Assembly (NCBI GenBank): GCA_027923505.1
Contig: BROI01000001.1
Location: forward strand, 1,178,001 to 1,242,000
Origin: Mayamaea pseudoterrestris
Lineage: Eukaryota
Reading direction: 5' to 3'
Length of the DNA stretch: 64,000 bases
Part shown: piece by piece, positions 7,268-64,000 of the stretch
Layout: the number at the start of each line of letters is the position of its first letter
Numbering within the stretch: the first letter of the stretch is position 1
Program-made: the position numbers and the translations under genes
Notes under the pieces: generated by a model
What the model was told of the DNA's origin: nothing
The model's input: only the letters and a program-made list of their open reading frames with translations
The model's database searches: none

Positions 7268-7403
7268 GCTCGTACAATGCGTTTTTCGATGCTCCTATGA
7301 GTTGCACTGCTTAATCTTCGCTGTCTCGTCGGACCCGGCTCGTACAATGCGTCCTTCGATACCCCTATGATTTATACTGCTAAGTCTTCGTTGTCTCGTC
7401 GGA
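7268..7403. repeat. Diverged 70-bp tandem duplication (2 copies)
   Basis: gctcgtacaatgcgt...tgtctcgtcgga at 7268-7333 and again at 7338-7403 with scattered substitutions. Confidence 0.85.
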
Positions 7404-27421: not shown

Positions 27422-27668
27422 AGCGTAGATTCATGTCAAGTAGCGAAAGTTTAACAAGTTCAGTTGTTGGAAAGGTGGACGAGAAAAACGCAGCGATTAT
27501 TGTGCGGATACGCTCGCCCTGGATGTCGCATCGGCTATGAAAAGCATTCACGAGCTCCAAGCTCGCTCCACCACGAAAACGAAACGGACGCTTGTCACAG
27601 TCACAGCTCGCAGTCAATCCGCTGCCACCATGACCGTCAATCATCAATAATTCAAGCACTCTTGCAGC

Positions 27669-37203: not shown

Positions 37204-38174
37204 CGCACTTCCCGTACTGGTAGTGAATGATGTTCCTGATGCTAGAACGACCACTGTTCAGCTTGCTAACCTTTTGCTTGCCTCTTGCAAACACCGCCAG
37301 CAAACAGAACCTCAAAGACTCCGCGAGAAAATGGAGAGGCGTGATCTCCTTTGCCTCCGCATATGAAGGCTAGTGACACCCTTGGCATTTGGTGCAATGA
37401 CTTGATTGCATCTGCCCCTGACGTTCATGGCGCTCCTGGTGCACGTCAAGAGTCATCTTCGTTTATCATTGGATCATGCAAGGTTCAAAGGAAGGGCAAT
37501 ACGACCCGCCATTGCACACAATTTCTGCTCATGACTAAGAAAGATCGATATCATTGGTTGCAATAGTTTAGCCGCGAAACACCTGCCGTGTGAACCGACG
37601 CGCGTGACAGATGCCTTGCAGATGGTTCGGACGCTTCCAAGTTCGGCACGCCCAGGTTCAACAACGGAAGCAAACTACCACGGTGATTGTGACGGATTGC
37701 AGACGATGAATGATCATTAGGGAGTAAACATTCCTCTGCACTTTCTGGACCAGAGGAAGTGTCTTGAACCTGTACTGTACTTGTACCGCGAAATGGTTAC
37801 AAGCACCCGATAGACGCGCTTACTTCAACGAGCGCATGGTATGCGAGCAACATGGGCGGTATTGCTGTCAGCCGTCGATGCGACGTTCCCTTTATCCGCC
37901 GTCGTCCTCCGCTTTGACCAAATGCGGCGACGAGTTGCTATAAACAGTTTCCTCCTAACAAACTCATAGCTCAACATATTTGCATTGCATGTCATATTGC
38001 TTCAAGGTTGAGCTGTCAACCAGCCCCGAATCATCTTGGATGGGAATTATCCCGTCGCTTGGCGATGAGTGTCAACAATGAAGTGATACGCAGAATTTTA
38101 GTACGTACTCGATAAAATGGAATCTCCAAATCTCTCAGTAATCTATTGAATAACTTTATAACTCTTGGTAATTA

Positions 38175-44100: not shown

Positions 44101-44924
44101 GCGATTGGCAAATTATTGGAATGAAGCAACGAGAATGAGCTTGAGTTCGATGATTTCGTTGAAGTATATTGTTGCTTTGAGTGATGATGCTGATTGCTGT
44201 TTTTGTTTCGAACCATTGGAAAGACGCAAATGCGATTGCCTGCATAGTCGTCGTCATCATCATCATAAAGTTTCGCCTTGTTTGGTATATTGCTGCGTGT
44301 AGTTCCAGTAGTCTCCTTCTTTTCTTCGTCGTCATCGCCATGTGATGTTACATCATCTTCGTCTTCATGTCGAGCCTCAAAGAGCGATTCGCCGGGTGCC
44401 AAGGCAATCCGCAGTACGACGCTCACCTTGCGGCAGTTGGAAAGACTCAAGGACGCTGCATCGCTTGTATTATTATCGCTGCTGCTGTTAAACGGCAATG
44501 ACGCTGCTGATGTCGTCGTCTTCACATCTCGTCTTGCTGGCGATCGAAACGGACTTTGCAATTGCAGTGGAGTCGTTGATGGATCATCTCCCGATGCTGT
44601 TAATGCTGCTGCTCCTGATGGCGACCATGACTCGTCGTGAAAGAAGGGCTGCATGATACGCTCCGGCGTCTGCGGCTGCAAAAACTGATTGTAGCTTGCT
44701 CGTTGAATCGACTCTCCCGCTGCTGCAGTGCTCTCTGCATTGGCCGCCTCCCTGTAACCGTAGCGACGGTCTTCCTCGATGTTATTGCTGTCGCTGTCGT
44801 GCATCAAGTTTTTCTTGCTCGTTTCCATTGATGAGATTGGTATCATTGAATCGACACCCAAAGCTCTTGGGCTGGATGGATTGTCACTCTCGTTCGTGAC
44901 AATATCAGAGCAACAGGTAAACAT
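38175..44924 (-). CDS. Kinesin-like protein with degenerate N-terminal motor domain and long coiled-coil tail (~2250 aa)
   Basis: Kinesin-fold motifs KVSVVLRI, SMTIMEINEHDLFDLL, LLGLNDVMV, FRDSMLTQVLQRSM, VVLANISP..YEETLATCRYTSR. Extensive heptad coiled coil in the C-terminal half. Exact start ATG uncertain (44924/44846/44828). Confidence 0.8.
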   Translation of the reverse strand: MFTCCSDIVTNESDNPSSPRALGVDSMIPISSMETSKKNLMHDSDSNNIEEDRRYGYREAANAESTAAAGESIQRASYNQFLQPQTPERIMQPFFHDESWSPSGAAALTASGDDPSTTPLQLQSPFRSPARRDVKTTTSAASLPFNSSSDNNTSDAASLSLSNCRKVSVVLRIALAPGESLFEARHEDEDDVTSHGDDDEEKKETTGTTRSNIPNKAKLYDDDDDDYAGNRICVFPMVRNKNSNQHHHSKQQYTSTKSSNSSSFSLLHSNNLPIAFKHASVDSPQDLILVNPTAFGKHIPNYVTMETAQLVQTVAHIQSEDWARRFTTHHVLWPTTTAVAASHGTGENDHDVSSLASPLEPLATAIANDVTRPGSISHRTVISTGTSVAGNLLFGAVASATVAQVLAMPTCKGKDEARVVQNYGLLGLVADKLISLTQNRQLLVSMTIMEINEHDLFDLLSAKPFDTKNKVHLRHGASSHHSSQLPQQGSSSLVLLGLNDVMVSDVKQVGRCVRRALAAAHHKRRSTPCGHVMATLKIWSSTNVPTAALEGDGESSYTDQQRRKIFNNNKCTVVNFLQLAQPVSTNRNGADRTIMTRHTAFVRQSVTVLGSVLRGTLLKEAGNDSTMVANFRDSMLTQVLQRSMEHADGRVVVLANISPWARYYEETLATCRYTSRLLFPTGMLQSPLLLDVDGSKRGKHIGVLAIKTTASANQSDRADIGADFNSSLELSHLDGTDDESDVSSTGLDHLTHYAEQSTLLQNMIADPRQRLAKLLKPGKKKMDDEFSGTANTHVPTSYEFDMGDDDRSGNDEHGFSPLSSHALPTPLVRNCKILSTDQYFGSPVASTKFNHIEHAIDSTFSLDAMEEGREGFIQDEPSPLTADTGYTFSQLDNALDSIMEVSAMGDDQSPLIMKSVHPVSRGEQIAEASNDLTDSFLLDWGDMGTVDPDETAMKDLSYELFGRGGRQSNKQHLEPATERSYTKEMDDLEHESQVRHNNRQNKPLVVVDEISQQRVVELEKLAHARLQNDSAISREEQWRSINSTADHDRRQALDQLMSDSFGWLPPAEDDVQQVMEHDWHEVEQLEAEKNWIRTSMDQAATWQDNIGSQVHVPIEMDNSEGTDGHDWQPRKAVKRQEGVSCEIDSTSMVKLVWERDDVLEKMRRVQQDLDAHAQDIYDTKVDQLGGINGDTATWLVGSQPQANGDFVVAKERTIDDNQRPIRGGHNKTEQYNGKIISRQSTLRQNNGRDETELGLPTEMASELHFAINYSQNSVAQVEYRLLKSPDLRLRQTAEMVLVTSETPPARTELDCGSEHFVAFLQAAHTNATECQRLFAAQEAVHVKKMERMENDIPIEQMDDAMNRGELQGRDDETLCERATKEEPEIKIPTHQADNIALLTSDHEVACRTTTDAQQAIEQLQQARHDYQTDSKQKLTCLKMELDTKHVMNGLGNVDDTEFASQHQAELEARDTILALFNAQFTREDLEDATELEAFRNVASKTQLDAMEDFELKQTKLDESNANIDELNDSLKQAKVDNKIIVAERELARDHARQITREYEQRLSEHRLVHSRLEEEIGQLKVRLTQNQTDSQQFTKETVSSSLLEIEVLEKNAAKAAIDANQTIYRLRRIIDDKDDIIRELQVSAEKTNREKDKELREIKDVHTRAEMAALEKQQILRRDVEQRHRVEEEVCELRLSLSKSEADRLEAIKIAEEAEGVLADLERRASLLEDDLEAQAASSIELEKTKNDLQNELDVRSKQNEELVAVLAAVRADLHNLVQHGVQYASAKAEMEEEISSLKEDLKQFDLVRQDLAQLHESKAALDRENDILKEALDTTKETMQERVTAAGTEISRLRLQCDCLQEELSSVRQSQQAAAGVLNQEILSLRQKLDDMEDRCAAVEDDLQIEIANKDALSSELEQTRDNLMLRIGDVKELSSSLKTLLGEKEQGEAQILSMKEAIAQFQIETRTKVQRVAQQRTDAVAMLEASLSDNKTLQATTEQLRSELQKVRSKLDATMVKMAEVQSELTRTQVAYRSVLDENIDLKESVHALDSHRRILDKNRAEERKRRLEKDQRQRYLELENERHSDQKTRFTHTADKEYLVDSEQQPFCTPLGRLERPKRKELIEDERSLANSHGDFLSRAVEIAAYIALSAKKTVDRKNAELEQLKRKLAEATKEQYILTDDDEMILLQQRIDELERLLGDRPLLEESIPLVEANTAVEVATLKRRVHKLERQLDDEQSRFRSSRR

Positions 44925-45347
44925 CTGTCGAATATAGAATGAAAAATGCTCACTGTCGATGCGAAGGCCGACTGGTCGCAAGCTCTCGTCATGGTGGCGC
45001 AGCGTGAACTTTGCAAATGTCGTAACGGTTCCGAAGCACGCGTCTCATTGGAGTTGTACGTCGTAGTACAAGCTTGTACCGGTATATAGGGCTCGGTTTT
45101 GTGTATGAATGACGTCATTGCCAATGTGGGTAGCTATCCAACTATTGCCTGCGGGAGCTACCGGTAGCGGGATCTGTTCACAAGAGACTCTTGGTGCAGC
45201 AGTCGGACGCTATTGGGAAGCTATCCAACAAAATCTGTTGCATAGTGTTGCACACTTACTCACGTTGCAATGGTGTTACACACACACGGATACGTACTTT
45301 TAACTCACTGAGCCTGTTCCAGGTACCAAAAAAGTATTTAAGTCAAA

Positions 45348-45635
45348 TACAAGATAATTTTACTGGCTGGTGTCTCATTGTACTGCAATGTGATTTGTGA
45401 TAACTTGTCACCAGGCTCAGCCTCCAGCTGCCATGCCTTTCAAATGCCCACACCTTGAGCCATGTGAATGACCATTTCAAACTAGAATAGTGCAAACATC
45501 CTTATTTCAGGTGCGCTACAAGATAAGTAAACTGGCTGTTATCTCTGAGGACTGCATTGTGATTGGTGATAACTTTTCACCAGTCTCAGTCAGCAGCTGC
45601 CAAGCCTTATAAATGCCCATACCCAAAGCCATGTG
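45348..45635 (+). repeat. Eroded monomers (~1.7 copies) of the 169-bp satellite C family
   Basis: tacaagat at 45348 and 45517 and aactt.tcacc at 45402 and 45571 (both exactly 169 bp apart). agaatagtgcaaacatccttatttcaggtgcgctacaagat matches the array at 62-64 kb. Confidence 0.85.
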
Positions 45636-46008
45636 TGTTGTGAATAGCAAGTCTTCACGGTGCTCGGACCGACTTAAGGATGAGGATGAGTTAGCTGACG
45701 ATGAGTGGACTGAGGTAACCCGCAAGAAGCCAAAATGGTCCAAAGAAAGCAACAAGGTGCGATTCAACTTGAATTGCAAGAAGAGCTTGCGTCAGTCTAC
45801 AAGCTTACGTGGTTAAGTGCAAACGTCAGCCCGAATGGCTACTTTATGCTCTATATTGAGCGCAACTTGAGGCAAGTTGCAGAAGAGGATACCTCTTGAA
45901 GATGCGAGAGGAGCGATTGTAGTTTGCAGCAGAATAAGATCATAATATCGAGTATCGTTAGCAATTGCAGAGTCTTTATTTGGTATTGTACAACCGTACT
46001 TTCTAACA
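45636..46008 (+). mobile_element. Putative 5' LTR (~373 bp) of a Ty1/copia element
   Basis: Begins TGTTG exactly where the satellite similarity stops and ends ...TTCTAACA 40 bp before the gag ATG. No second copy in the window to confirm it. Confidence 0.55.
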
Positions 46009-46047
46009 CGTTTTAAAACGATCGACTTAGAAAGGATTCAAGACAAG

Positions 46048-47893
46048 ATGCCAAGCACCATGGAAGCCAAGAACCTACGCAAAGTCCCGTGGAACGGGTT
46101 GAAGGAGACGTGGAAGGACTGGAAGCCGCAGATCCTCGCGTTGATTGAAGGGTTGGGAGCGCTCGGTGCGGTGAACAAGGACTTGTCTAAGTTGGCGAAG
46201 CACAAGTTGTTGAGTCCTGATGAGTACCTCATGATGGAAGTTGAGGAGGAGGAGAAGGATTCAAACGGGAGAAGCACTGGGACGAAAACCACTCGCGAAG
46301 CGACTACCCAAGAGTTGCGTCTCCATGAGAAGAACGCCAAGGCTCAAGCTGCTATCGTCAATAGCATTGAGAATCATGCCCTGATGCGTCAAGTTAGCAC
46401 GCAGACTACCGCGTTTGCCATGTGGGAGCTCCTGAAGGAAGAGTTCGAGGCTGGCAACATGATATCGGATCTCCCGCAGCTCCAGAAAGAGTACTCTGAC
46501 TGTGTCCCGGGGAATTACACAACGGCGCATGATTGGTTGGCGGATCTTGAGCTTGCCAACACTTGCTTGGGAGACGTTGACCCCAAGTACATGAACGACG
46601 AAAATCAGAAGAAGTCGACCATCTTCCAGTGTCTCCAGCGCTCGACAGCTTGGGCGCCTTTCTGCTCGGCTCATCGCGGCAACGTTATGAAGGAAACATT
46701 TACCTTGAAGGACTTTAAGGAGTTGATTGTCGAGGAGTGGAAAGTGAGCGGAAACCCAGGCGGCAAGGGAGGCAAGAAAGGCGACGACTTGGCGTTAGCT
46801 ACTTGGCCTGGCAAGCCACCATTGAAACGTTGCTTTAAGTGTAACAAGTTTGGTCATGTCAAGCGCGATTGTCCTGACAAGAAGAAGGATGACAAGGGTG
46901 AGAAGGGCGGCAACGCGAAGAACAATGGTGGTGGTGGCGGCGGCAAAGGAAACGGCGACAAGAAGAAGACAATTACCTGTTTCGTTTGCGGTGAGAAGGG
47001 TCATTACGCTAGCAAGTGCCCGAAGAAGAAGAGCAACAGCAGTCAAGGCAGTCACTCTAATGCGGAAGACTCGGAGGACGAGGATCCTTGGTTGATGGCC
47101 GTCATGGAGGAGCAGTCGATGGAGGTGCCAGTGACGTCAGAGGAATCGTGTGAGCTGCCGACGGAGGTGCATCTGACGTCAGCCCCGTATGGAGAGCCAA
47201 TGGGCGCGCTCGAATGGATTTGCAACCAGCGCTCGACCATGGAGATTGAGGAAGATGATGATGACTGGTCTTTCTTCAATGATAGCGAAGATGGCGATTC
47301 GGTCCCGTGCGACACGAATTGGGACGACAAAAGCAATGAAAGCGGATCATCAATTCCGAGCTTGAATCCTCGCAATCTGAGTGGATATGACAGCGATGAT
47401 TCGAGTGAGATGCCTGTCTTGTTACGCCCGAACGAGAGCATCGATAACAACAATTCACTTACCAATGGATCGCAGGTCGACAAAGAGGAGAAGCACTTGG
47501 TTTTTGCAGTCTCGGATCGCGACGAAGCTTACGACAACAAGTACATGCTGGACTCGGGCAGCGGAACGCACGGAGTCCATTGCGCTGATGCGATGGTGAA
47601 CTTGAGGACTTGCAACCATACCTTGATCATTGCCGATGGAACTCGCTGCGTGGCAACTCAGATGGGAGACTTGCCGCTCGTGACGAAGGATGGTACTCGT
47701 TTTGTGTTGACGGAGGTACCAATCATGGCGCAGTTTCCTCGCAATATTATCAGTTTGAGCAAGCTTTTGGATAAAGGATGCTTCGTCAAGTCGGTTAGCA
47801 AGGAGCGTATTCGAGTCGCTTGGACAACACCGAAGGGAAGGGAGCGTGGAATCAACTTTGAGCGTGACCCCGGCGGTAAACTCTTTTACTTGG
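46048..47893 (+). mobile_element. Ty1/copia gag-protease, truncated by satellite A
   Basis: Copia gag (TTAFAMWELLKEEF), two CCHC knuckles (CFKCNKFGHVKRDC, CFVCGEKGHYASKC), protease YMLDSGSGTH...IADG...GDL...RNIISLSKL. The ORF reads into the satellite at 47894. Confidence 0.92.
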
Positions 47894-50800
47894 TGCCCCA
47901 TGCCCTGGCCACCCAACAACCCAATGAGTCAGGCAAAACATGTCCAGGGTGTGCCATTGACATGAGGATGGGCTGAAATGGTGCAAAACGGACTGCCTGG
48001 AGGCCTACACCATCTGCAAAATGGGTGTGGCCAACACCGCAAATTATGGAATCATACCACTACAATGCCCCGTCCCCTGATCACCCAACAACCCAATGAG
48101 TCATGCAAAACATGTCCAGGGTGTGCCATTGACAAGGGGATGGTCTGACATGGTACAAAACGGACTGCCTGGAGGCCTACAGCATGGAATGGTCTACATG
48201 ATGGGTGTGGCCAACACCCGAAATTATGGAATCATACCACTACAATGCCCCATGCCCTGGCCACCCAACAACCCAATGAGTCAGGCAAAACATGTCCAGG
48301 GTGTGCCATTGACATGAGGATGGGCTGAAATGGTGCAAAACGGACTGCCTGGAGGCCTACACCATCTGCAAAATGGGTGTGGCCAACACCGCAAATTATG
48401 GAACCATACCACTACAATGCCCCGTCCCCTGATCACCCAACAACCCAATGAGTCATGCAAAACATGTCCAGGGTGTGCCATTGACATGAGGATGGTCTGA
48501 CATGGTACAAAACGGACTGCCTGGAGGCCTACAGCATGGAATGGTCTACAAGATGGGTGTGGCCAACACCGCAAATTATGGAATCATACCACTACAATGC
48601 CCCATGCCCTGGCCACCCAACAACCCAATGAGTCAGGCAAAACATGTCCAGGGTGTGCCATTGACATGAGGATGGGCTGAAATGGTGCAAAACGGACTGC
48701 CTGGAGGCCTACACCATCTGCAAAATGGGTGTGGCCAACACCGCAAATTATGGAATCATACCACTACAATGCCCCGTCCTCTGATCACCCAACAACCCAA
48801 TGAGTCATGCAAAACATGTCCAGGGTGTGCCATTGACATGAGGATGGTCTGACATGGTACAAAACGGACTGCCTGGAGGCCTACAGCATGGAATGGTCTA
48901 CAAGATGGGTGTGGCCAACACCCCAAATTATGGAATCATACCACTACAATGCCCCATGCCCTGGCCACCCAACAACCCAATGAGTCAGGCAAAACATGTC
49001 CAGGGTGTGCCATTGACATGAGGATGGTCTGACATGGTACAAAACGGACTGCCTGGAGGCCTACAGCATGGAATGGTCTACAAGATGGGTGTGGCCAACA
49101 CCGCAAATTATGGAATCATACCACTACAATGCCCCGTCCCCTGATCACCCAACAACCCAATGAGTCATGCAAAACATGTCCAGGGTGTGCCATTGACATG
49201 AGGATGGTCTGACATGGTACAAAACGGACTGCCTGGAGGCCTACAGCATGGAATGGTCTACAAGATGGGTGTGGCCAACACCCCAAATTATGGAATCATA
49301 CCACTACAATGCCCCATGCACTGGCCACCCAACAACCCAATGAGTCAGGCAAAACATGTCCAGGGTGTGCCATTGACATGAGGATGGGCTGAAATGGTGC
49401 AAAACGGACTGCCTGGAGGCCTACACCATCTGCAAAATGGGTGTGGCCAACACCGCAAATTATGGAATCATACCACTACAATGCCCCATCCCCTGATCAC
49501 CCAACAACCCAATGAGTCATGCAAAACATGTCCAGGGTGTGCCATTGACATGAGGATGGTCTGACATGGTACAAAACGGACTGCCTGGAGGCCTACAGCA
49601 TGGAATGGTCTACAAGATGGGTGTGGCCAACACCCCAAATTATGGAATCATACCACTACAATGCCCCATGCCCTGGCCACCCAACAACCCAATGAGTCAT
49701 GCAAAACATGTCCAGGGTGTGCCATTGACATGAGGATGGTCTGACATGGTACAAAACGGACTGCCTGGAGGCCTACACCATCTGCAAAATGGGTGTGGCC
49801 AACACCGCAAATTATGGAATCATACCACTACAATGCCCCATCCCCTGATCACCCAACAACCCAATGAGTCATGCAAAACATGTCCAGGGTGTGCCATTGA
49901 CATGAGGATGGGCTGACATGGTACAAAACGGACTGCCTGGAGGCCTACACCATCTGCAAAATGGGTGTGGCCAACACCCCAAATTATGGAATCATACCAC
50001 TACAATGCCCCGTGCCCTGGTCACCCAACAACCCAATGAGTCATGCAAAACATGTCCAGGGTGTGCCATTGACATGAGGATGGGCTGAAATGGTACAAAA
50101 CGGACTGCCTGGAGGCCTACACCATCTGCAAAATGGGTGTGGCCAACACCGCAAATTATGGAATCATACCACTACAATGCCCCATCCCTGATCACCCAAC
50201 AACCCAATGAGTCATGCAAAACATGTCCAGGGTGTGCCATTGACATGAGGATGGTCTGACATGGTACAAAACGGACTGCCTGGAGGCCTACAGCATGGAA
50301 TGGTCTACAAGATGGGTGTGGCCAACACCCCAAATTATGGAATCATACCACTACAATGCCCCATGCCCTGGCCACCCAACAACCCAATGAGTCAGGCAAA
50401 ACATGTCCAGGGTGTGCCATTGACAGACATGAGGATGGGCTGAAATGGTGCAAAACGGACTGCCTGGAGGCCTACACCATCTGCAAAATGGGTGTGGCCA
50501 ACACCGCAAATTATGGAATCATACCACTACAATGCCCCGTCCCCTGATCACCCAACAACCCAATGAGTCATGCAAAACATGTCCAGGGTGTGCCATTGAC
50601 ATGAGGATGGTCTGACATGGTACAAAACGGACTGCCTGGAGGCCTACAGCATGGAATGGTCTACAAGATGGGTGTGGCCAACACCCCAAATTATGGAATC
50701 ATACCACTACAATGCCCCATGCCCTGGCCACCCAACAACCCAATGAGTCAGGCAAAACATGTCCAGGGTGTGCCATTGACATGAGGATGGGCTGAAATGG

Positions 50801-53275
50801 TGCAAAACGGACTGCCTGGAGGCCTACACCATCTGCAAAATGGGTGTGGCCAACACCGAAATTATGGTATCATACCACTACAATGCCCCGTCCCCTGATC
50901 ACCCAACAACCCAATGAGTCATGCAAAACATGTCCAGGGTGTGCCATTGACATGAGGATGGTCTGACATGGTACAAAACGGACTGCCTGGAGGCCTACAG
51001 CATGGAATGGTCTACAAGATGGGTGTGGCCAACACCCCAAATTATGGAATCATACCACTACAATGCCCCATGCCCTGGCCACCCAACAACCCAATGAGTC
51101 AGGCAAAACATGTCCAGGGTGTGCCATTGACATGAGGATGGGCTGAAATGGTGCAAAACGGACTGCCTGGAGGCCTACACCATCTGCAAAATGGGTGTGG
51201 CCAACACCGCAAATTATGGAATCATACCACTACAATGCCCCATCCACTGATCACCCAACAACCCAATGAGTCATGCAAAACATGTCCAGGGTGTGCCATT
51301 GACATGAGGATGGTCTGACATGGTACAAAACGGACTGCCTGGAGGCCTACAGCATGGAATGGTCTACAAGATGGGTGTGGCCAACACCCCAAATTATGGA
51401 ATCATACCACTACAATGCCCCCATGCCCTGGCCACCCAACAACCCAATGAGTCAGGCAAAACATGTCCAGGGTGTGCCATTGACATGAGGATGGGCTGAA
51501 ATGGTGCAAAACGGACTGCCTGGAGGCCTACACCATCTGCAAAATGGGTGTGGCCAACACCCCAAATTATGGAATCATACCACTACAATGCCCCGTCCCT
51601 TGATCACCCAACAACCCAATGAGTCATGCAAAACATGTCCAGGGTGTGCCATTGACATGAGGATGGTCTGACATGGTACAAAACGGACTGCCTGGAGGCC
51701 TACAGCATGGAATGGTCTACAAGATGGGTGTGGCCAACACCCCAAATTATGGAATCATACCACTACAATGCCCCATGCCCTGGCCACCCAACAACCCAAT
51801 GAGTCAGGCAAAACATGTCCAGGGTGTGCCATTGACATGAGGATGGGCTGAAATGGTGCAAAACGGACTGCCTGGAGGCCTACACCATCTGCAAAATGGG
51901 TGTGGCCAACACCGCAAATTATGGAATCATACCACTACAATGCCCCGTCCCCTGATCACCCAACAACCCAATGAGTCATGCAAAACATGTCCAGGGTGTG
52001 CCATTGACATGAGGATGGTCTGACATGGTACAAAACGGACTGCCTGGAGGCCTACAGCATGGAATGGTCTACAAGATGGGTGTGGCCGACACCCCAAATT
52101 ATGGAATCATACCACTACAATGCCCCATGCCCTGGCCACCCAACAACCCAATGAGTCAGGCAAAACATGTCCAGGGTGTGCCATTGACAGACATGAGGAT
52201 GGGCTGAAATGGTGCAAAACGGACTGCCTGGAGGCCTACACCATCTGCAAAATGGGTGTGGCCAACACCGCAAATTATGGAATCATACCACTACAATGCC
52301 CCGTCCCCTGATCACCCAACAACCCAATGAGTCATGCAAAACATGTCCAGGGTGTGCCATTGACATGAGGATGGTCTGACATGGTACAAAACGGACTGCC
52401 TGGAGGCCTACAGCATGGAATGGTCTACAAGATGGGTGTGGCCAACACCCCAAATTATGGAATCATACCACTACAATGCCCCCATGCCCTGGCCACCCAA
52501 CAACCCAATGAGTCAGGCAAAACATGTCCAGGGTGTGCCATTGACATGAGGATGGGCTGAAATGGTGCAAAAACGGACTGCCTGGAGGCCTACACCATCT
52601 GCAAAATGGGTGTGGCCAACACCGCAAATTATGGAATCATACCACTACAATGCCCCGTCCCCTGATCACCCAACAACCCAATGAGTCATGCAAAACATGT
52701 CCAGGGTGTGCCATTGACATGAGGATGGTCTGACATGGTACAAAACGGACTGCCTGGAGGCCTACAGCATGGAATGGTCTACAAGATGGGTGTGGCCAAC
52801 ACCCCAAATTATGGAATCATACCACTACAATGCCCCATGCCCTGGCCCAACAACCCAATGAGTAGGAAACATGTCCAGGGTGTGCCATGACATGAGGATG
52901 GGCTGAAATGGTGCAAAACGGACTGCCTGGAGGCCTACACAAAATGGGTGTGCCAACACCGCAAATTATGGAATCATACCACTACAATGCCCCGTCCCCT
53001 GATCACCCAACAACCCAATGAGTCATGCAAAACATGTCCAGGGTGTGCCATTGACATGAGGATGGATGGTCTGACATGGTACAAAACGGACTGCCTGGAG
53101 GCCTACAGCATGGAATGGTCTACAAGATGGGTGTGGCCAACACCCCAAATTATGGAATCATACCACTACAATGCCCCATGCCCTGGCCACCCAACAACCC
53201 AATGAGTCAGGCAAAACATGTCCAGGGTGTGCCATTGACACGAGGATGGGCTGAAATGGTGCAAAACGGACTGCC
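47894..53275 (+). repeat. Satellite A: tandem array of ~30 monomers alternating 172 and 180 bp (352-bp higher-order dimer)
   Basis: Monomer starts at 47894, 48066, 48246, 48418, 48598. The 172-type has tacaccatctgcaaaatggg and the 180-type has tacagcatggaatggtctacaagatggg. Confidence 0.97.
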
Positions 53276-55623
53276 CAGATCTCGCGACGGGGCTACCATG
53301 GGAACGACGAAAGTAGTCCACGACAACTCTCGAAAGAAACGACGACGAAACAGATTCCGATGGCGAACCCGCACGTACCAGCGAAGTTCTTCAGAAGGGC
53401 TGAGCAAGAATCAGGAATAAATGCCCTCTGTTCTCTCCAAGCGAACTCATCGGACGACGTTCGTAAGGAACACGAAACGGTCAGAAAATGCGCGACTGTA
53501 TGCGAATATATCGGGTACGCGATAACGGAGCTACTCCGAAACGACGAAAGGTTTCTTGATCAGATGGGAAAGAGCCAGCGAAGACTTAATAAGTTACAAC
53601 GAACTGTCGGATTTAATCGAACGACAGATGGGACGAAGATATACGAAACGATCCGGCGACTCAGTGGGTATTCACGAAGGTAATCGGACAAGAGCTTAAT
53701 TTGAAACCGAACGATCCGACATACAAAGGAAGTTCGTAACGTTCTCGTCGAGTGGACTGACGGAACAACGACGTAGGGAGCCTCTCGATCATGAAGAGGG
53801 ACGATCCGATAACGATCGCAGAGTATGGACTCAAGCACGGCTTACTCGACAAACCGGGTGAGAAGCAGCTGGAACATTACACTCGAAGCGAAAGAAGTTT
53901 CGACAGATGGTGACAGCAGCGAAACGAAAATCGAAAAGCAAACGGGCGTACGCTACAAATTTGGCGTAAGATTGCCGCGCAACTATAAGGATCGCGTAGC
54001 TCCCGACGATCAACGGCAACCACGCTGTGGACGGATGCGATTCGAACGGAACTAAATCAGATAAATGATTACGACACGTTCGCAGATCAGGGAATCGGTA
54101 AGGTTTGCCGGCGCCGTGGAAACGAATAAACGTGCACATGATATTCGGTGTCAAGCACGATTTGCGACGGAAAGCACGACTCGTCGCAGGAGGACATATG
54201 ACAGAGCCGCCGGGATTCAGTTTACTCCGGCGTTGTGTCATTGCGAAGTCTACGAATGGTAGCGATGTTAGCGGAACTCAACGGTCTGGAACTGTGGGCA
54301 GCTGACGTCGGCAACGCATACTTGGAAGCGAAACGAAGAGAAGGTTTATATCGTGGCAGGTCCGGAGTTCGGGAGCTCGAGGGTCACACGCTCACGATCG
54401 TGAAGGCACTATACGGCTCCACGCCGCGCACGCTCGCACGAACACTCTGCAGACGCCTCCGCGACATTGGTTTCACGCCGTGTATCGCAGAACCGGACGT
54501 GTGGATGCGCGATGAAGGCACGCACTACGAATACGTTTGTGTGTATGTCGACGATTTAGCGATAGCAATGAAGAATCCGCGAAGAACTAACGGATCTTTT
54601 AATTGAGAACTGCAACTACAAGTTGAAGGCGTCGGTCCATTGGCATATCATTTGGGCGCAGACGTTTGGCGGGACGACGACGGCGTACTCTGCTTTGGAG
54701 CGAAGAAATACGTCACAAGACTATTAGCGAACTACAAAGAAATGTTCGGCGAGGAACCAGCGACCGCAGACAAGTCCACTACGCGCGGCGATCATCCGAA
54801 CTCGACGAAACGAAAAGAACTTGACGACGACGGAATTGCGAAGTATCAATCGATCATTGGTGCGTTGCAATGGGCAGTAAGTTTATGCCGATTCGACATT
54901 CACTGTGCTGTCATGACTATGGGGAGATTCCGAGTTGCGCCACGAGCGGGGCACTGGAACGGTTGAAGCATATTTGCGGATACTTACGGCGATTTCCCGG
55001 ATGGAGCGATTCGATTCAACGTTTCGATTCCAACGGACGAAGCGTACGCGACAGTTGACAAGATGGATTGGGATTACAGTGTGTACGGCAAGATCTGCGA
55101 AGAGCTTCAGTGGAACATGCCAACGCCGCGCGGCAAAAGGCGGTCGCGAATGTCAACGTTCGAAGATGCGAACCTGTACCCACGATTACACGACGGGACG
55201 GGCAGCGATGGGCATGCTACACATGTTGAATGGAACAGTCGTCGATTGGTTTCCAAACGCCAGGCGACGGTCGAGACGGCGACGTACGGCTCGGAGTTTG
55301 TAGCAGCGAGAGTGAGCACGGAGCAGATCATGGATCTCCGCTTCACGCTACGCATGTTGGGAGTTCCGCTCGACGGACCTTCATGGATGTTTGGAGACAA
55401 CAAGTCGGTAACGCAAAGCAGCAACTTACCGCACTCTAGTCTGACGAAGCGACACAATGCACTGGCATTTCACCGTGTACGCGAAGCGATTGCGGCGGGA
55501 ATTATTAATTTCAACCACATCATGGGAACGACAAACCCGGCGGATGTACTTACCAAGTTTCTTCCACGGGCTACGGCAAGCAAGCACTTAAAGAACCTGC
55601 TCTTCAAGGAATCTAACTATTAG
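53276..55623 (+). mobile_element. Frameshifted 3' half (chromo-like region, RT, RNase H) of a diatom CoDi-type Ty1/copia element
   Basis: Across frames: VKHDLRRKARLVAGGH, AADVGNAYLEA, IVKALYG, EPDVWMR, VYVDDL, YQSIIGALQW, QATVETATYGSEFVA, MFGDNKSV, KRHNALAFHRVRE, NPADVLTK. Confidence 0.92.
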
Positions 55624-55630
55624 GTATGAC

Positions 55631-55887
55631 TTGAGGGGAGTTGCAGGATGCGAACGAAAACAGCGAAAATCGGGCAAGTCACACCGAATGTCCGATAGGG
55701 TGACACAGCGGCACTCGCGGCTCACCACAGCCTCACGATCGCGTGATGCGTGGCAGCGACGGCTTCGAAACGATTCAACGAGTATATTGCTGAAACTAGT
55801 GCGATATAGAGTAGAAACAAGCAGACTTACTAAGCTTGAAGAGTTAAGAAAGCGATTTATTCGTCTCTCGTATTGTAGCAACTGCAA
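55631..55887 (+). mobile_element. Polypurine tract and putative LTR of the CoDi-type element
   Basis: ttGAGGGGAG just after the RNase H stop, followed by TTGCAG...CTGCAA inverted termini (55641-55887). An alternative end is ...CAACA at 55955. Confidence 0.5.
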
Positions 55888-55955
55888 GCTTGGATTGGCC
55901 CTCCAAGGACAGCTACAAGCGAAAGGTGCAACGATTTGATTTACAAGTTACAACA

Positions 55956-57494
55956 AGGGTGGGTTTTGTTGTGTAGATTGAACAATTGGGCGCCGCTATG
56001 TGGCATACATGGGACGTGCTTGGCCTTGGCATATGCTGCATGAATATTTTGTTTCATACCCGGCTGGTGCACTTCGTTGTAGTATTGGGTAGCTTGTAAA
56101 TCTGCAATGACATTCAGTCTGGCTTCAAAAGTGAGTCTGGCGCCTGGTTTGTCCTGGTGCCCTTTAACGTGTTGGACGCGATGATTTGGTATTTCTTTTA
56201 TTGTGTGAAGTAATTGTAGACATACGTCAGAATCGGTCTTCAGATTCAGCCCAGTGGAAGGTATCTTTGACTGAAGTCGTTGCAAGCGCTTGATGAGTCC
56301 CAAGTTATCACATATCCATGTGCACTGGAACACTCGTTCATGTCGAGGTATATTGAAGTATGTAACTGCATGGGTGAGAAATTGGGTAGCTGAAATGCCC
56401 CCATAGCCCTCTGCTCGGAATGAGTGCATCATTTCGGAGTCGCCTTGTGCGGGGCCTTTGCTTTGGGCTATAATTTCCTCTGTATCCTGGACTGCCAAGA
56501 TCCATCCAAATGACCCGAGTCCATCTTTCACACCGCCATCGCTGCACTGTATAAGTTTAGTGGTTTGACGAAGTTTCGTAGCAAAGTCTTGGTCCGTCCA
56601 AAAGACAGTTGTATATTGTTGTAGTTCCTTGTCCCAAGATGGGAAGTCCTGCAGATACTGGCTAAATGTAGAATACGTTGCTGTTAGCAGTAGAGGTGTG
56701 TAATGTCCAGGGACTGGTGTTGCAAAATGATGCCCGCGAAGGTGAGCAGTAGTTGGTACACTATTGTGCGGAATATTATGGCAGCTGCCGGTAGCATGCT
56801 CACTGAACCACTGGCCAGGAAAGCTTGTTTGACTTGAGCGCCTGGTATGGCTCACCACCGGTATTTGCGGATGAACTGCCCATTCTGAACCGCTCCATCG
56901 ATAGAGGCATGCGTTGTCTGGATCGACAACAAAGTCCCACTGTTGAGCCAGTTTGTTCACCGGGAGAAGCCAATTTCCTAATGGGTGGCGTAATTCGCGA
57001 TTCTTGCCGGTGTAGTGTGGCTTGGCAAATGTTGTTGTTATCGCTTTGCGGTAGAGCGCCCATCCCTTTCTGCCTGGCTTTTGCTGCTGTGACCAATTTA
57101 GTTTATTGACTCGTGGCGTTGCTGTGTCATATAGATAAGAGTCATCCAATTTTTCACCATCCGTGGTGGAAATTTCCGACAGAAATGTTACTTGAAGGTA
57201 AAGTCGACATGCGTTGATTCGCTCAAGCTGTGTAGGATTAGTCGTGTATCTTGTAACTTCATCCATGATGAATAAATCCCCATCTCTTGGCAGTGGCTGC
57301 TCATTTTCCGTTGGTATTTGTAGGGAGAGAAGAATGGTTTGCGGATATTCGAATGGATATGGCCATATTCCCAAGGGGCGACAAGCTTCTTCAGCCAGTC
57401 TTGCTCGCCATTCATCAGGATGAGTTGCCACCAGAAGGATCGATTGAGCACAAGCTCATTAAAGGCACGGGAGTCTGGATGGACGCGCCATTGT
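55956..57494 (-). mobile_element. Fragment of non-LTR (LINE-like) retrotransposon ORF with RNase H domain, truncated at both ends
   Basis: RNase H motifs CSDGGVKDGLGSFGW, SFRAEGYG, ICDNLGLI, HVKGHQD, LNVIADLQA. The upstream INACRLYLQVTFLSEISTTDG segment resembles post-RT regions of diatom LINEs. Confidence 0.8.
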
Positions 57495-60400
57495 ATACAT
57501 GTCTTGGTTACCTTCCAATGGAGCTCCAGGATTTGGGTGCGGCTCCAGGGGCATGGGTTTGTTGCCGCAACACAGGAAAATTGTAACCACACAGGCACCA
57601 CTGACATTTCATCACTTTGAGCACTCTGGCTGGACTCAGGGCATACAGACGCCTTTAATGATGCCCCATACATGTCTTGGTTACCTTCCAATGGAGCTCC
57701 AGGATTTGGGTGCGGCTCCAGGGGCATGGGTTTGTTGCCGCAACACAGGAAAATTGTAACCACACAGGCACCACTGACATTTCATCACTTTGAGCACTCT
57801 GGCTGGACTCAGGGCATACAGACGCCTTTAATGATGCCCCATGCATGTCTTGGTTACCTTCCAATGGAGCTCCAGGATTTGGGTGCGGCTCCAGGGGCAT
57901 GGGTTTGTTGCCGCAACACAGGAAAATTGTAACCACACAGGCACCACTGACATTTCATCACTTTGAGCACTCTGGCTGGACTCAGGGCATACAGACGCCT
58001 TTAATGATGCCCCATACATGTCTTGGTTACCTTCCAATGGAGCTCCAGGATTTGGGTGCGGCTCCAGGGGCATGGGTTTGTTGCCGCAACACAGGAAAAT
58101 TGTAACCACACAGGCACCACTGACATTTCATCACTTTGAGCACTCTGGCTGGACTCAGGGCATACAGACGCCTTTAATGATGCCCCATACATGCCTTGGT
58201 TACCTTTCAAAAGAGCTCCAGGATATGGGTGCGGCTCCAGGGGCATGGGTTTGTTGCCGCAACACAGGAAAATTGTAACCACACAGGCACCACTGACATT
58301 TCATCACTTTGAGCACTCTGGCTGGACTCAGGGCATACAGACGCCTTTAATGATGCCCCATACATGTCTTGGTTACCTTCCAATGGAGCTCCAGGATTTG
58401 GGTGCGGCTCCAGGGGCATGGGTTTGTTGCCGCAACACAGGAAAATTGTAACCACACAGGCACCACTGACATTTCATCACTTTGAAAATCTGGCTGGACT
58501 CAGGACATTCAGACACCTTTAATGATGCCCCATACATGTCTTGGTTACCTTCCAATGGAGCTCCAGGATTTGGGTGCGGCTCCAGGGGCATGGGTTTGTT
58601 GCTGCAACACAGGAAAATTGTAACCACACAGGCACCACTGACATTTCATCACTTTGAGCACTCTGGCTGGACTCAGGGCAGTCAGACGCCTTTAATGATG
58701 CCCCATACATGTCTTGGTTACCTTCCAATGGAGCTCCAGGATTTGGGTGCGGCTCCAGGGGCATGGGTTTGTTGCCGCAACACAGGAAAATTGTAACCAC
58801 ACAGGCACCACTGACATTTCATCACTTTGAGCACTCTGGCTGGGCTCAGGGCATACAGACGCCTTTAATGATGCCCCATACATGTCTTGGTTACCTTCCA
58901 ATGGAGCTCCAGGATATGGGTGCGGCTCCAGGGGCATGGGTTTGTTGCCGCAACACAGGAAAATTGTAACCACACAGGCACCACTGACATTTCATCACTT
59001 TGAGCACTCTGGCTGGACTCAGGGCATACAGACGCCTTTAATGATGCCCCATACATGTCTTGGTTACCTTCCAATGGAGCTCCAGGATTTGGGTGCGGCT
59101 CCAGGGGCATGGGTTTGTTGCCGCAACACAGGAAAATTGTAACCACACAGGCACCACTGACATTTCATCACTTTGAGCACTCTGGCTGGGCTCAGGGCAT
59201 TCAGACGCCTTTAATGATGCCCCATACATGTCTTGGTTACCTTCCAATGGAGCTCCAGGATTTGGGTGCGGCTCCAGGGGCATGGGTTTGTTGCCGCAAC
59301 ACAGGAAAATTGTAACCACACAGGCACCACTGACATTTCATCACTTTGAGCACTCTGGCTGGACTCAGGGCATACAGACGCCTTTAATGATGCCCCATAC
59401 ATGTCTTGGTTACCTTCCAATGGAGCTCCAGGATTTGGGTGCGGCTCCAGGGGCATGGGTTTGTTGCCGCAACACAGGAAAATTGTAACCACACAGGCAC
59501 CACTGACATTTCATCACTTTGAGCACTCTGGCTGGACTCAGGGCATACAGACGCCTTTAATGATGCCCCATACATGTCTTGGTTACCTTCCAATGGAGCT
59601 CCAGGATTTGGGTGCGGCTCCAGGGGCATGGGTTTGTTGCCGCAACACAGGAAAATTGTAACCACACAGGCACCACTGACATTTCATCACTTTGAGCACT
59701 CTGGCTGGACTCAGGGCATACAGACGCCTTTAATGATGCCCCATACATGTCTTGGTTACCTTCCAATGGAGCTCCAGGATTTGGGTGCGGCTCCAGGGGC
59801 ATGGGTTTGTTGCCGCAACACAGGAAAATTGTAACCACACAGGCACCACTGACATTTCATCACTTTGAGCACTCTGGCTGGACTCAGGGCATACAGACGC
59901 CTTTAATGATGCCCCATACATGTCTTGGTTACCTTCCAATGGAGCTCCAGGATTTGGGTGCGGCTCCAGGGGCATGGGTTTGTTGCCGCAACACAGGAAA
60001 ATTGTAACCACACAGGCACCACTGACATTTCATCACTTTGAGCACTCTGGCTGGACTCAGGGCATACAGACGCCTTTAATGATGCCCCATACATGTCTTG
60101 GTTACCTTCCAATGGAGCTCCAGGATTTGGGTGCGGCTCCAGGGGCATGGGTTTGTTGCCGCAACACAGGAAAATTGTAACCACACAGGCACCACTGACA
60201 TTTCATCACTTTGAGCACTCTGGCTGGACTCAGGGCATACAGACGCCTTTAATGATGCCCCATACATGTCTTGGTTACCTTCCAATGGAGCTCCAGGATT
60301 TGGGTGCGGCTCCAGGGGCATGGGTTTGTTGCCGCAACACAGGAAAATTGTAACCACACAGGCACCACTGACATTTCATCACTTTGAGCACTCTGGCTGG

Positions 60401-62065
60401 ACTCAGGGCATACAGACGCCTTTAATGATGCCCCATACATGTCTTGGTTACCTTCCAATGGAGCTCCAGGATTTGGGTCCGGCTCCATTGTGGGGCATGG
60501 GTTTGTTGCCCAAGCACATCATAATTGTAACCACACAGGCACCACTGACATTTCATCACTTTGAGCACTCTGGCTGGACTCAGGGCATTCAGACGCCTTT
60601 AATGATGCCCCATACATGTCTTGGTTACCTTCCAATGGAGCTCCAGGATTTGGGTGCGGCTCCAGGGGCATGGGTGTGACATACGCACCGGCACAGCAAG
60701 CACCTTAGCCGCCCAGGGCCAAACACCGGATGCGCCAACATCCACTTTGGCACTCGGGCGCTACAAGATGGGCTCTTGGCTGGTCTCAGGGGCATGGGTA
60801 GTTGGTGCCACAACAAGGAAAATTGTAACCAGACAAGCACCACTGACATTTCATCACTTTGAGCACTCTGGCTGGACTCAGGGCATACAGACGCCTTTAA
60901 TGATGCCCCATACATGTCTTGGTTACCTTCCAATGGAGCTCCAGGATTTGGGTGCGGCTCCAGGGGCATGGGTTTGTTGCCGCAACACAGGAAAATTGTA
61001 ACCACACAGGCACCACTGACATTTCATCACTTTGAGCACTCTGGCTGGACTCAGGGCATACAGACGCCTTTAATGATGCCCCATACATGTCTTGGTTACC
61101 TTCCAATGGAGCTCCAGGATTTGGGTGCGGCTCCGGGGCGTGGGTTTGTTGCCGCAACACAGGAAAATTGTAACCACACATGCACCACTGACATTTCATC
61201 ACTTTGAGCACTCTGGCTGGACTCAGGGCATACAGACGCCTTTAATGATGCCCCCACATACCTTCCAATGGACAGCAGCCCAAATGTAACCACACAGGCA
61301 CCACTGACACACGAGCACTCTCGGACTCACATAGAGCGCCTACAATGCTTGGGCGCTCCAGGATGGCGGTGTCCAGGGGAGGCAAGTTTGGTGACACAAA
61401 ATTGTAACCACACAGGCACCACTGACATTTCATCACTTTGAGCACTCTGGCTGGACTCAGGGCATACAGACGCCTTTAATGATGCCCCATACATGTCTTG
61501 GTTACCTTCCAATGGAGCTCCAGGATTTGGGTGCGGCTCCAGATGTGGCGCAACACAGGAAAATTGTAACCACACAGGCACCACTGACATTTCATCACTT
61601 TGAGCACTCTGGCCGGACTCAGAGCATACAGACGCCTTTAATGATGCCCCATACATGTCTTGGTACTTTGCCTCAGGTGGAGGCATGGGTTTGTTGCCGC
61701 ACAGAAACTTGTCACCACATTTCATCACTTGAGCACTCTGGCGCCGCAGATGCCGTGACTTAAACGCCCCTACAGCCCTTCAAGCTCCGGATGAGGGGCA
61801 TGGGTTTGTTGCCGCAACACAGGAAAATTGTAACCACACAGGCACCACTGACATTTCATCACTTTGAGCACTCTGGCTGGACTCAGGGCATACCGACGCC
61901 TTTAATGATGCCCCATACATGTCTGATTTACCTTCCAATGGAGCTCCAAGATTTGGGTGCGGCTCCAGGGGCATGGGTTTGTTGCCGCAACACAGGAAAA
62001 TTGTAACCACACAGGCACCACTGACATATCATCACTTTGAGCACTCTGGCCGTAAATTGTAACCA
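57495..62065 (+). repeat. Satellite B: tandem 173-bp array (~26 monomer lengths; homogeneous to ~60.5 kb, mosaic afterwards)
   Basis: Identical short ORFs recur every 173 bp. Monomer atacatgtcttggttaccttccaatggagctccagg...tttaatgatgcccc. Confidence 0.97.
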
Positions 62066-64000
62066 TGCCCAAAATGCACCGTAATAGTGCCAACATCATT
62101 AATCAGGCTGCACTACAAGATGGTAGTCTTGGCTGTAGTCTCAGGGGATGGCAATGTATTTGGTGACAACTTGTCACCAGTCTCAGCCCGCAGATGCCGT
62201 GACATTCAAACACCCCTACAGCAAGCCCTGTAGGTGCCCAAAATGCACCGTAATGGTGCCAACATGATTAATCAGGCTGCGCTACAAGATGGTAGTCTTG
62301 GCTGTTGTCTCAGGGGATGGCAATGTATTTGGTGACAACTTGTCACCAGTCTCAGCCCGCAGATGCCGTGACATTCAAACGCCCCTACAGCAAGCCCTGT
62401 AGGTGCCCAAAATGCACCAGAATGGTGCCAACATCATTATTCAGGCTGCGCTACAAGATGGTAGTCTTGGCTGGTGTCTCAGGGGATGGCAATGTATTTG
62501 GTGACAACTTGTCACCAGTCTCAGCCCGCAGATGCTGTGACATTCAAATACCCCTAAAGCAAGCCCTGTAGGTGCCCAAAATGCACCAGAATGGTGCCAA
62601 CATCATTATTTAAGCTGCGCTACAAGATAGTAGTCTTGGCTGGTGTCTCAGGGGATGGCAATGTATTTGGTGACAACTTGTCACCAGTCTCAGCCCGCAG
62701 ATGCCGTGACATTCAAATACCCCTACAGCAAGCCCTGTAGGTGCCCAAAATGCACCAGAATGGTGCCAACATCATTATTAAGGCTGCGCTACAAGATGGT
62801 AGTCTTGGCTGGTGTCTCAGGGGATGGCAATGTATTTGGTGACAACTTGTCACCAGTCTCAGCCCGCAGATGCCGTGACATTCAAATACCCCTAAAGCAA
62901 GCCCTGTAGGTGCCCAAAATGCACCAGAATGGTGCCAACATCTTTATTCAGGCTGCGCTACAAGATGATAGGCTTGGCTGGTGTCTCAGGGGATGGCAAT
63001 GTATTTGGTGACAACTTGTCAACAGTCTCAGCCCGCAGATGCCGTGACATACAAACACCCCTACAGCAAGCCCTGTAGGTGCCCAAAATACACCAGAATG
63101 GTGCCAACATCCTTATTCAGGCTGCGCTACAAGATGGTAGTCTTGGCTGGTGTCTCAGGGGACGGCAATGTGTTTGGTGACAACTTGTCACCAGTCTCAG
63201 CCCGCAGATGCCGTGACATTCAAACACCCCTACAGCAAGCCCTGTAGGTGCCCAAAATACACCAGAATGGTGCCAACATCCTTATTCAGGCTGCGCTACA
63301 AGATGGTAGTCTTGGCTGGTGTCTCAGGGGACGGCAATGTGTTTGGTGACAACTTGTCACCAGTCTCAGCCCGCAGATGCCGTGACATTCAAACACCCCT
63401 ACAGCAAGCCCTGTAGGTGCCCAAAATACACCAGAATGGTGCCAGCAACACTGTTCTGGCTGCGCTACAAGATGGTAGTCTTGGCTGGTGTCTCAGGGGA
63501 TGGCAATGTATTTGGTGACAACTTGTCACCAGTCTTAGCCCACCGATGCCGTGACATTCAAACGCCTCTACAGCAAGCCCTGTAGGTGCCAAAAATACAC
63601 CAGAATGGTGACAACATCCTTATTCAGGCTGCGCTACAAGATGGTAGTCTTGGCTGGTGTCTCAGGGGATGGCAATGTATTTGGTGACAACTTGTCACCA
63701 GTCTCAGCCCGCAGATGCCATGAAATTCAAACGCCCCTACCGCAAGCCCTGTAGGTGCCCAAAATACACCAGAATGGTGTCAACATCATTAATCCGGCTG
63801 CGCTACAAGATGGTAGGCTTGGCTGGTGTCTCAGGGGATGGCAATGTATTTGGTGACAACTTGTCACCAGTCTCATCCCGTAGATGCCATGACATTCAAG
63901 CACCCCTACAGCAAGCCCTGTAGGTGCCCAAAATACACCAGAATGGTGCCAACATCCTTATTCAGGCGGCGCAATAATATGGTAGGCTTGGCTGGTGTCT
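62066..64000 (+). repeat. Satellite C: tandem 169-bp array (~11 copies, continues beyond window)
   Basis: Monomer ...gcgctacaagatggtagtcttggctggtgtctcaggggatggcaatgtatttggtgacaacttgtcacca... recurs every 169 bp (e.g. ORF starts 62981, 63150, 63319). Confidence 0.97.

Follow-up and report, generated by a model that had tools for sequence, protein, structure and literature searches.

Which kind of chromosomal structure lies at the end of a 64-kb stretch of genomic DNA (hereafter the window; positions are counted from its first nucleotide) from the diatom Mayamaea pseudoterrestris, where the genes stop and tandem repeats take over? An initial annotation of the window had described gene-dense DNA that ends at about 45 kb, followed by three nucleosome-length satellites (named sat1, sat2 and sat3 here) interleaved with retrotransposon fragments, and had proposed a satellite-based centromere or pericentromere of the plant and animal type. 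We found that the window contains a real block of satellites and retroelements of this organism, which starts abruptly after the last gene. We describe it as classical satellite/retroelement heterochromatin, a known kind of structure for which the literature searched gave no description from this lineage. A pericentromeric or centromeric role is the leading reading of this block and a tentative one, as discussed below.

The three arrays were recovered by Tandem Repeats Finder with monomers of 172/180, 173 and 169 bp, the last array running past the end of the window, in agreement with the initial annotation. Each is, as expected of satellite DNA, a head-to-tail array of units of about 100 bp or longer in 11–31 copies. 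Splitting the arrays wherever a conserved start word occurs delimited the monomers and resulted in the same spacings of 172/180, 173 and 169 bp. The first array, sat1 (47894–53275, forward strand), contains 30 full monomers and one partial monomer. A period of 180 nt describes it with 30.6 copies and 89% matches, but it is better fitted by a period of 352 nt (15.3 copies, 97% matches, score 10144). We observed two monomer types: type A (14 of the 30 full monomers) is 172 bp long and 97.5% alike among its copies, type B (15 of 30) is 180 bp long and 98.3% alike, and the one remaining unit is an odd monomer of 157 bp. Types A and B are 88.7% alike to each other and mostly alternate along the array, interrupted once by BBB and once by AAA. 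The sat1 array is a dimeric higher-order repeat with a unit of 352 bp.

The second array, sat2 (57495–60611, forward strand), consists of 18 monomers of 173 bp, and broken units continue to about position 62050. With this period Tandem Repeats Finder reported 18.4 copies at 57495–60675 (98% matches) and 2.7 more copies at 60787–61254. According to blastn the full-length copies are 93–100% identical to the first copy, with at least 96.5% identity in 17 of 18 and 100% in 11 of 18, although this identity of the copies could reflect a polishing artefact. A mixed zone follows (60612–62065, forward strand) in which broken and rearranged sat2 monomers are found together with short sat3-like pieces (60676–60810 and 61744–61776). 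The third array, sat3 (62066–64000, forward strand), contributes 11.4 monomers of 169 bp with 95% matches before the window ends. Its mean pairwise identity is 93.8%; neighbouring monomers are 95.3% identical on average, and the value falls to 93.8% for monomers at distance 4. The GC (guanine plus cytosine) content of the three satellites is 0.513, 0.517 and 0.507, respectively, close to the 50% that had been estimated by eye. No similarity among sat1, sat2 and sat3 was found above that of shuffled sequences, as 9 to 98 of 300 shuffles reached the observed alignment scores. We classed the satellites as non-coding: a 103-codon open reading frame (ORF) of sat2 had no relatives in a protein search among proteins of 56–181 residues, and no polyprotein match was located inside the arrays, the sat2 frame alone having been searched as protein. 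Exact matches in metagenome contigs amounted to zero both for a 22-mer of sat1 and for a degenerate 24-mer of sat3, as expected of fast-evolving, lineage-restricted satellites.

A diverged relative of sat3 marks the left border of the block. This sat3-like remnant (45322–45635, with a refined end of up to 45637; forward strand) comprises about 1.9 monomers that are about 75% identical to sat3. The sat3 monomer matches it by blastn at 45348–45444 and 45486–45634 (about 75% identity), which explains why the initial annotation let the block start at 45348. The remnant ends at sat3 phase 169/1–2 and the right-hand sat3 array begins at phase 1; by chance the phases would agree this closely, to a few bases, in about 3% of cases, for a post hoc observation on two sides that are only about 75% alike. 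Given this phase match, one older array of the sat3 family may conceivably enclose the 16.4 kb of mixed retroelement pieces, sat1 and sat2.

Next, we turned to public sequence data from outside the assembly. Five public runs of two studies, available as contigs and not as reads, contain the unique flank at 36001–46000 (word shares 0.51–0.76). The 5.8-kb stretch 44001–49800, which takes in the sat3-like variant and part of sat1, was compared with the runs X1–X4. On this stretch we found 33,400 of 555,133 contig records for X1, 4,270 of 182,933 for X2 and 19,836 of 560,787 for X3; records fitting two places in it numbered 32,093, 3,964 and 15,643, respectively. Summed word depths, which are not copy numbers and are used in a qualitative way only, range from 3.2 thousand to 3.8 million in the sat1 bins of X1 compared to about 88–120 on the unique flank. 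For the sat3-like bin (contigs at least 90% alike) they amount to 76,582 in X1, 6,752 in X2 and 2,864 in X3, while the unique flank shows 19–35 in X2 and 8–15 in X3. The Copia gag region described below reaches only about 2–4 times the word depth of the unique flank. As contigs that differ from one another and number in the tens of thousands cannot stem from about 31 near-uniform monomers, sat1 and the sat3-like variant have to be abundant beyond this locus, and they are major, variant-rich components of the genome. This abundance in runs of two studies speaks against arrays confined to one locus, which had been named beforehand as an outcome that would count against a centromere.

Independent contigs from both studies cross the border between genes and satellites at 45348, namely X1 record 2 (44254–45414), X2 record 10 (44254–45519) and X3 record 18 (45191–45519), so that a contaminant or chimeric contig, also raised beforehand, does not hold at this junction. 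From the bridged boundary together with the abundance we conclude that the block is neither a contaminant nor a single-locus oddity. One further contig, X3 record 19 (45499–45664), leads from the remnant 29 bases into the Copia element, the criterion of the tool being 31 bases. In X4, sat1 and the segment 44971–45358 are almost uncovered, an observation from which we drew no inference.

Two side observations were made on these contigs. First, the differences between the window and the run contigs at 44001–47900 are mostly transitions (in X1 the 53 places include 15 A>G, 12 T>C and 8 G>A changes). The heterozygosity of the strain is given as 2.97% (PMC9724779), and the transition-rich differences are compatible with this value or with differences between strains. 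Second, a 68-bp module of sat1 (47895–47962, in the same phase at 49311–49378) occurs with other flanks in many contigs of X1–X3: 187, 51 and 50 contigs sharing the module diverge before 47895, and 104, 35 and 23 diverge behind 47962 (X1, X2 and X3, respectively). This indicates a further abundant repeat family that shares the 68-bp module with sat1 and is absent from the window.

That the host is a diatom, as the initial annotation had supposed from the letters alone, became clear from the PurH ORF (AICARFT/IMPCHase, 402–2297, reverse strand), which, over 98% of its length, matches the M. pseudoterrestris protein MPSEU_000043300 with 100% identity. The second-best protein match is 77% identical, and among the 120 matches listed the further named ones are mostly from diatoms. 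The published assembly of this species has 30.6 Mb in 41 contigs (N50 1,068 kb) and was built from Nanopore data at 52x with a read N50 of 8.6 kb; it contains 11,019 genes and 19% repeats, chiefly Ty1/Copia (10.79%) (PMC9724779). The repeat table of the genome paper gives “Satellites 0” and 7.36% “Unclassified”, and its main text does not contain the words centromere, telomere or satellite (PMC9724779). Given this table and the absence of the word satellite from the main text, sat1, sat2 and sat3 are undescribed there.

The gene-dense part contains 16 stop-to-stop ORFs of at least 200 amino acids (aa) within positions 1–45044 and has a GC content of 0.49 (positions 1–45000). The last of them ends at 45044, and the end of the genes at about 45 kb is thereby borne out. 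The final long ORF before the repeats (38175–45044, reverse strand) spans 2289 codons from stop to stop and marks the boundary of the euchromatin.

The satellites are strongly depleted in CpG. The ratio of observed to expected CpG is 0.07 in the sat3-like remnant (45348–45635), 0.17 in sat1, 0.25 in sat2, 0.32 in sat3 and 0.39 in the mixed zone, compared to 1.09 in the genes (1–45044), 1.03 in the Copia 5′ piece and 0.73 in the long interspersed nuclear element (LINE) piece. The maximum of the window, 1.57, is found in the piece with Copia reverse transcriptase (RT) together with RNase H (53276–55940). In turn, TG plus CA are at 1.63–1.84 times their expectation in the satellites versus 0.94–1.32 in the non-satellite segments (1.18 in the genes), and the consensus monomers contain 1–3 CpG versus 7–13 GpC. 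Since the loss of CpG is common to unrelated families, it points to a process that acts on the place and not to a common ancestor. The depletion of CpG with a matching excess of TG and CA suggests that the satellites have long been cytosine-methylated and deaminated. The retroelement pieces would have arrived more recently, in keeping with their open frames of 649 and 504 codons and their undepleted CpG.

We further analyzed the retroelement pieces by Pfam, tblastn and protein searches and identified a Copia gag-protease piece, a Copia RT/RNase H piece and a LINE piece, so that retrotransposon fragments indeed separate the arrays. The Copia 5′ part (45636–47893, forward strand) starts with TGTTG, carries an open frame with gag, zinc knuckle and protease and is cut off at 47893. 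Pfam detected Retrotran_gag_2, zf-CCHC and Pol_BBD (gag, zinc knuckle, protease barrel) in 45946–47892, and a protein search of 1.84 billion representatives found 612 relatives at E ≤1e-3. For tblastn we used Copia polyproteins, 10 chosen among the 150 relatives listed and later 16 representatives of at least 900 aa; the best of them, P0121 (1301 aa), aligned to this part with aa 2–657 and the complete polyprotein P0201 (1374 aa) with aa 1–395. The Copia RT/RNase H fragment (54220–55623, forward strand) consists of three consecutive ORFs in one frame with two in-frame stops (54604–54606 and 54964–54966). It is aligned at 54220–55557 by aa 940–1352 of P0201, and an RVT_2 match at 54202–54606 corresponds to positions 52–178 of the 244 positions of the Pfam profile. 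Between sat1 and this fragment lie 944 bp (53276–54219, no strand assigned) for which we obtained no Pfam match at E ≤5, no tblastn match to the Copia polyproteins tried and no repeat elsewhere in the window. No pair of long terminal repeats (LTRs) was found in the window, including a 3′ LTR of the RT/RNase H fragment, and 45636–47893 and 54220–55623 show no nucleotide similarity to each other. The two Copia pieces are fragments of family members and not an intact element.

The third piece (55944–57455, reverse strand) is an internal fragment of a LINE ORF2, open over 504 codons, with an RNase H-like region and truncated at both ends. It has 32 longer relatives (883–2520 aa) at E ≤1e-5, of which 10 carry the endonuclease domains PF03372 or PF14529 and one carries PF00078 (RVT_1). 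The fragment aligns to aa 1177–1635 of the 1952-aa relative P0271 with 51.6% identity, which is the part after the RT; the RVT_1 match of P0271 itself is under the Pfam cut-off (25.8 versus 29.6 bits). The resemblance to RNase H was seen in the Atlas alone (score 0.91) and has the status of a lead. A sequence search of the PDB gave only chance-level matches for the LINE ORF (E 0.35 and 0.86). Pfam at E ≤5 gave nothing meaningful on the LINE ORF and on the ORFs of 53255–55620.

How could such a block have come about? We propose that the arrays would have grown and homogenised by unequal exchange, which fits the sat1 dimer, a core of near-identical copies in sat2 and an identity that falls with distance in sat3. 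The arrays would then have been cytosine-methylated and silent for a long time, leaving CpG depleted 3- to 15-fold. Retroelements would have inserted into the block and would have been cut down by recombination. Taken jointly, we consider these three steps of a heterochromatin account likely.

In a fourth step, a chromosome of about 3 Mb would have its pericentromere or centromere in this block, with phased nucleosome-length repeats carrying or flanking CENH3 chromatin. This role is the leading reading, and we put it forward as a possibility that falls somewhat short of probable. Satellites of 150–180 bp together with retrotransposons are the centromere architecture of plants and animals, for instance human alpha satellite and Arabidopsis CEN180 with its ATHILA insertions. 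The layout of the block agrees in large part with this architecture, as had been claimed: nucleosome-length satellites, a higher-order dimer, retroelement fragments and a sharp border to the euchromatin are all present. We also found a higher-order organisation with a homogenised core, seen in the 97% versus 89% matches of the sat1 dimer and in the 100% identity of 11 of the 18 sat2 copies. For a targeting of centromeres by the retroelements no sign was found, all three pieces being truncated and the Copia gag region showing its word depth of about 2–4 times the flank.

Several points weigh against a centromeric role. The Copia depth just mentioned does not point to a centromere-specific enrichment. 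As far as the window shows them, the arrays are short, with 5.4, 4.6 and at least 1.9 kb, lengths which the assembly may have collapsed. Dyad symmetry of the monomers was not in excess over shuffles when two-monomer DNA was folded (z = +1.55, 0.00 and −1.23). The place of the block within its contig rests on the numbering of locus tags, and a bridge of the Copia/sat1 junction at 47893/47894 was not found among the matches listed. With Nanopore reads of N50 8.6 kb the array lengths, copy identities and internal junctions are possibly imperfect (PMC9724779). Moreover, the only experimentally mapped diatom centromeres, those of Phaeodactylum tricornutum, are low in GC and free of repeats, and similar low-GC peaks occur in Thalassiosira pseudonana (10.1101/096016). 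Low-GC sites in two distant diatoms lower the prior for a satellite centromere. A full-text literature search, with subscription-only papers outside its scope, turned up neither these satellites nor any diatom centromere based on satellites. That M. pseudoterrestris as a whole possesses satellite-based regional centromeres, with CENH3 on one of the 169–180-bp families and one block per chromosome, seems rather unlikely to us. If it were true, the type of centromere would have switched within the raphid pennates, from low-GC unique sites to higher-order satellite arrays with methylated flanks.

Among the competing explanations, an interstitial island of heterochromatin survives best. The block would then be a ‘graveyard’ of repeats and transposons, and the true centromeres would be short low-GC sites elsewhere on the chromosome. 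Every retroelement piece being broken, the arrays being short within the window and a CpG depletion that signals silencing and not kinetochore function would all fit such an island, as would the low-GC centromeres of a pennate diatom and the low-GC peaks of a centric one (10.1101/096016) and the low-GC regions of 36–42% proposed for Fistulifera solaris (10.1101/2021.11.10.468027). We searched the window with the metric of the Phaeodactylum study, looking either for several 100-bp windows of ≤32% GC clustered in 3 kb or for low GC over at least 500 bp (10.1101/096016). Only 1 of 640 non-overlapping 100-bp windows has ≤32% GC, with a maximum of one per 3 kb, and the lowest 500-bp window has 41% GC. 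The 64 kb are thus without a low-GC candidate, a result that is silent on the rest of the chromosome. A further argument against the island comes from what is generally observed in plants and animals, where packed, unrelated, high-copy satellites of nucleosome length are most often centromeric or pericentromeric. All in all, we regard the island as unlikely.

A subtelomeric satellite block, with arrays running on to the end of the chromosome, is less likely again. Subtelomeric satellites of comparable unit length are common among eukaryotes, sat3 passes the end of the window at 64000, and the position in the contig is derived from a locus-tag number only. However, tandem copies (two or more) of TTAGGG, CCCTAA, TTTAGGG or CCCTAAA are absent from the 64 kb, so that the arrays are not adjacent to telomere repeats within the window, which had been named as a further outcome against a centromere. 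The host contig is 2,994,718 bp long and the locus tag of PurH is number 433 of 11,019 genes; if numbering starts there, this suggests several hundred genes on each side. If the largest contig was the first to be numbered, the block would lie about 1.2 Mb inside the 2.99-Mb contig, as estimated from the tag number.

We consider it more improbable still that the block is an artefact of assembly, in the sense that the sequences are real but their order, their sizes or their linkage to the genes were misassembled or polished. A read N50 of 8.6 kb at 52x would allow for it (PMC9724779), the 100% identity of 11 of the 18 full-length sat2 copies to the first may be a result of polishing, and the junction 47893/47894 is unbridged among the contigs listed while other Copia copies continue differently there. 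Against it, the boundary between the genes and the sat3-like remnant is bridged in two studies (X1 record 2, X2 record 10 and X3 record 18), X3 record 19 links the remnant to 29 bases of Copia, just below the criterion of 31, and the satellites agree with the host in GC content.

Finally, the idea that sat1 arose by tandem amplification of an internal Copia segment and sits where the integrase belongs, which is suggested by gag-protease and RT/RNase H pieces on both sides in the same orientation and correct order, by a gag-protease frame that runs open 27 codons into sat1 and by pre-integrase, integrase and the beginning of the RT (some 540 aa compared to P0121 and P0201) missing exactly at sat1, was rejected as highly improbable: other Copia copies in the runs X2 and X4 follow the window to 47893 and then continue with a different, apparently in-frame, non-satellite sequence, tblastn with the Copia polyproteins tried gave no match inside 47926–53275, sat1 has no nucleotide similarity to the retroelement pieces, and its CpG ratio of 0.17 is unlike the 1.03 and 1.57 of the Copia pieces. 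The divergence at 47893 was observed in X2 record 16 (721 of 1004 bases on the window) and in X4 record 32, and copies of the element in X4 differ in sequence before 45635/45636. Among the elements compared here, namely the retroelement pieces of the window and the Copia and LINE relatives, no transposon homology of the monomers was found. As other Copia copies diverge at 47893, the position 47893/47894 is a breakpoint between a truncated element and the array. It is also the least secure join of the window, since no contig among the matches listed bridges it.

Some observations were made in the gene-dense flank. The final long ORF at 38175–45044 is intronless with an apparently coiled-coil-rich sequence, and a Pfam search assigned no family to it. 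One ORF at 27651–29444 (forward strand) combines a GNAT acetyltransferase domain with a PhzF-like domain. Between long ORFs, a 70-bp unit is repeated in 1.9 copies with 84% identity (7268–7403).

The relevance of the candidate centromere lies in the picture of short, low-GC, repeat-free sites gained from Phaeodactylum, on which episomes and artificial chromosomes for diatoms are modelled. M. pseudoterrestris is a compact and culturable freshwater diatom and permits a direct test of whether this picture holds across diatoms. Even if the block is not the site of the kinetochore, classical satellite heterochromatin exists in diatoms, the depletion of CpG predicts heavy and long-standing cytosine methylation on the satellites, and the assembly and its repeat annotation probably under-represent a part of the M. 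pseudoterrestris genome.

Compared to known systems, the block shares most features with alpha satellite and CEN180: monomers of 169–180 bp, a dimeric repeat, near-identical core copies next to a diverged one at the margin, inserted retrotransposons, an abrupt change to gene-rich DNA and the compositional signature of long-term methylation. It differs from both in that the arrays within the window measure kilobases and not hundreds of kilobases, are about 51% GC and not AT-rich and belong to three unrelated families side by side, in a diatom genome of 30 Mb. With P. tricornutum the host shares the algal class, the pennate type and a compact genome (30.6 compared to 26.1 Mb) (PMC9724779), whereas the block is tandemly repeated and without the low-GC stretch of the centromeres of that species (10.1101/096016). 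The families PpSat1 and PpSat2 of Phytophthora parasitica are likewise stramenopile satellites seen through the limits of an assembly, and PpSat1 is flanked by transposon islands and is a proposed centromere candidate, judged from its sequence (PMC7290008); both families belong to another group of organisms and have no sequence relation to the satellites described here. The centromeres of Phytophthora sojae, also a stramenopile, span 211–356 kb and are enriched in the Copia-like transposon CoLT (PMC7082073). Both systems have Copia-type elements in a heterochromatic, poorly transcribed regional structure, but that of P. sojae is based on transposons with no satellite component in its cited description (PMC7082073), while in M. 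pseudoterrestris the satellites dominate and Copia is a low-copy, truncated bystander. With short low-GC sites in Phaeodactylum and regions of 211–356 kb in P. sojae, the centromere types of stramenopiles differ widely (PMC7082073).

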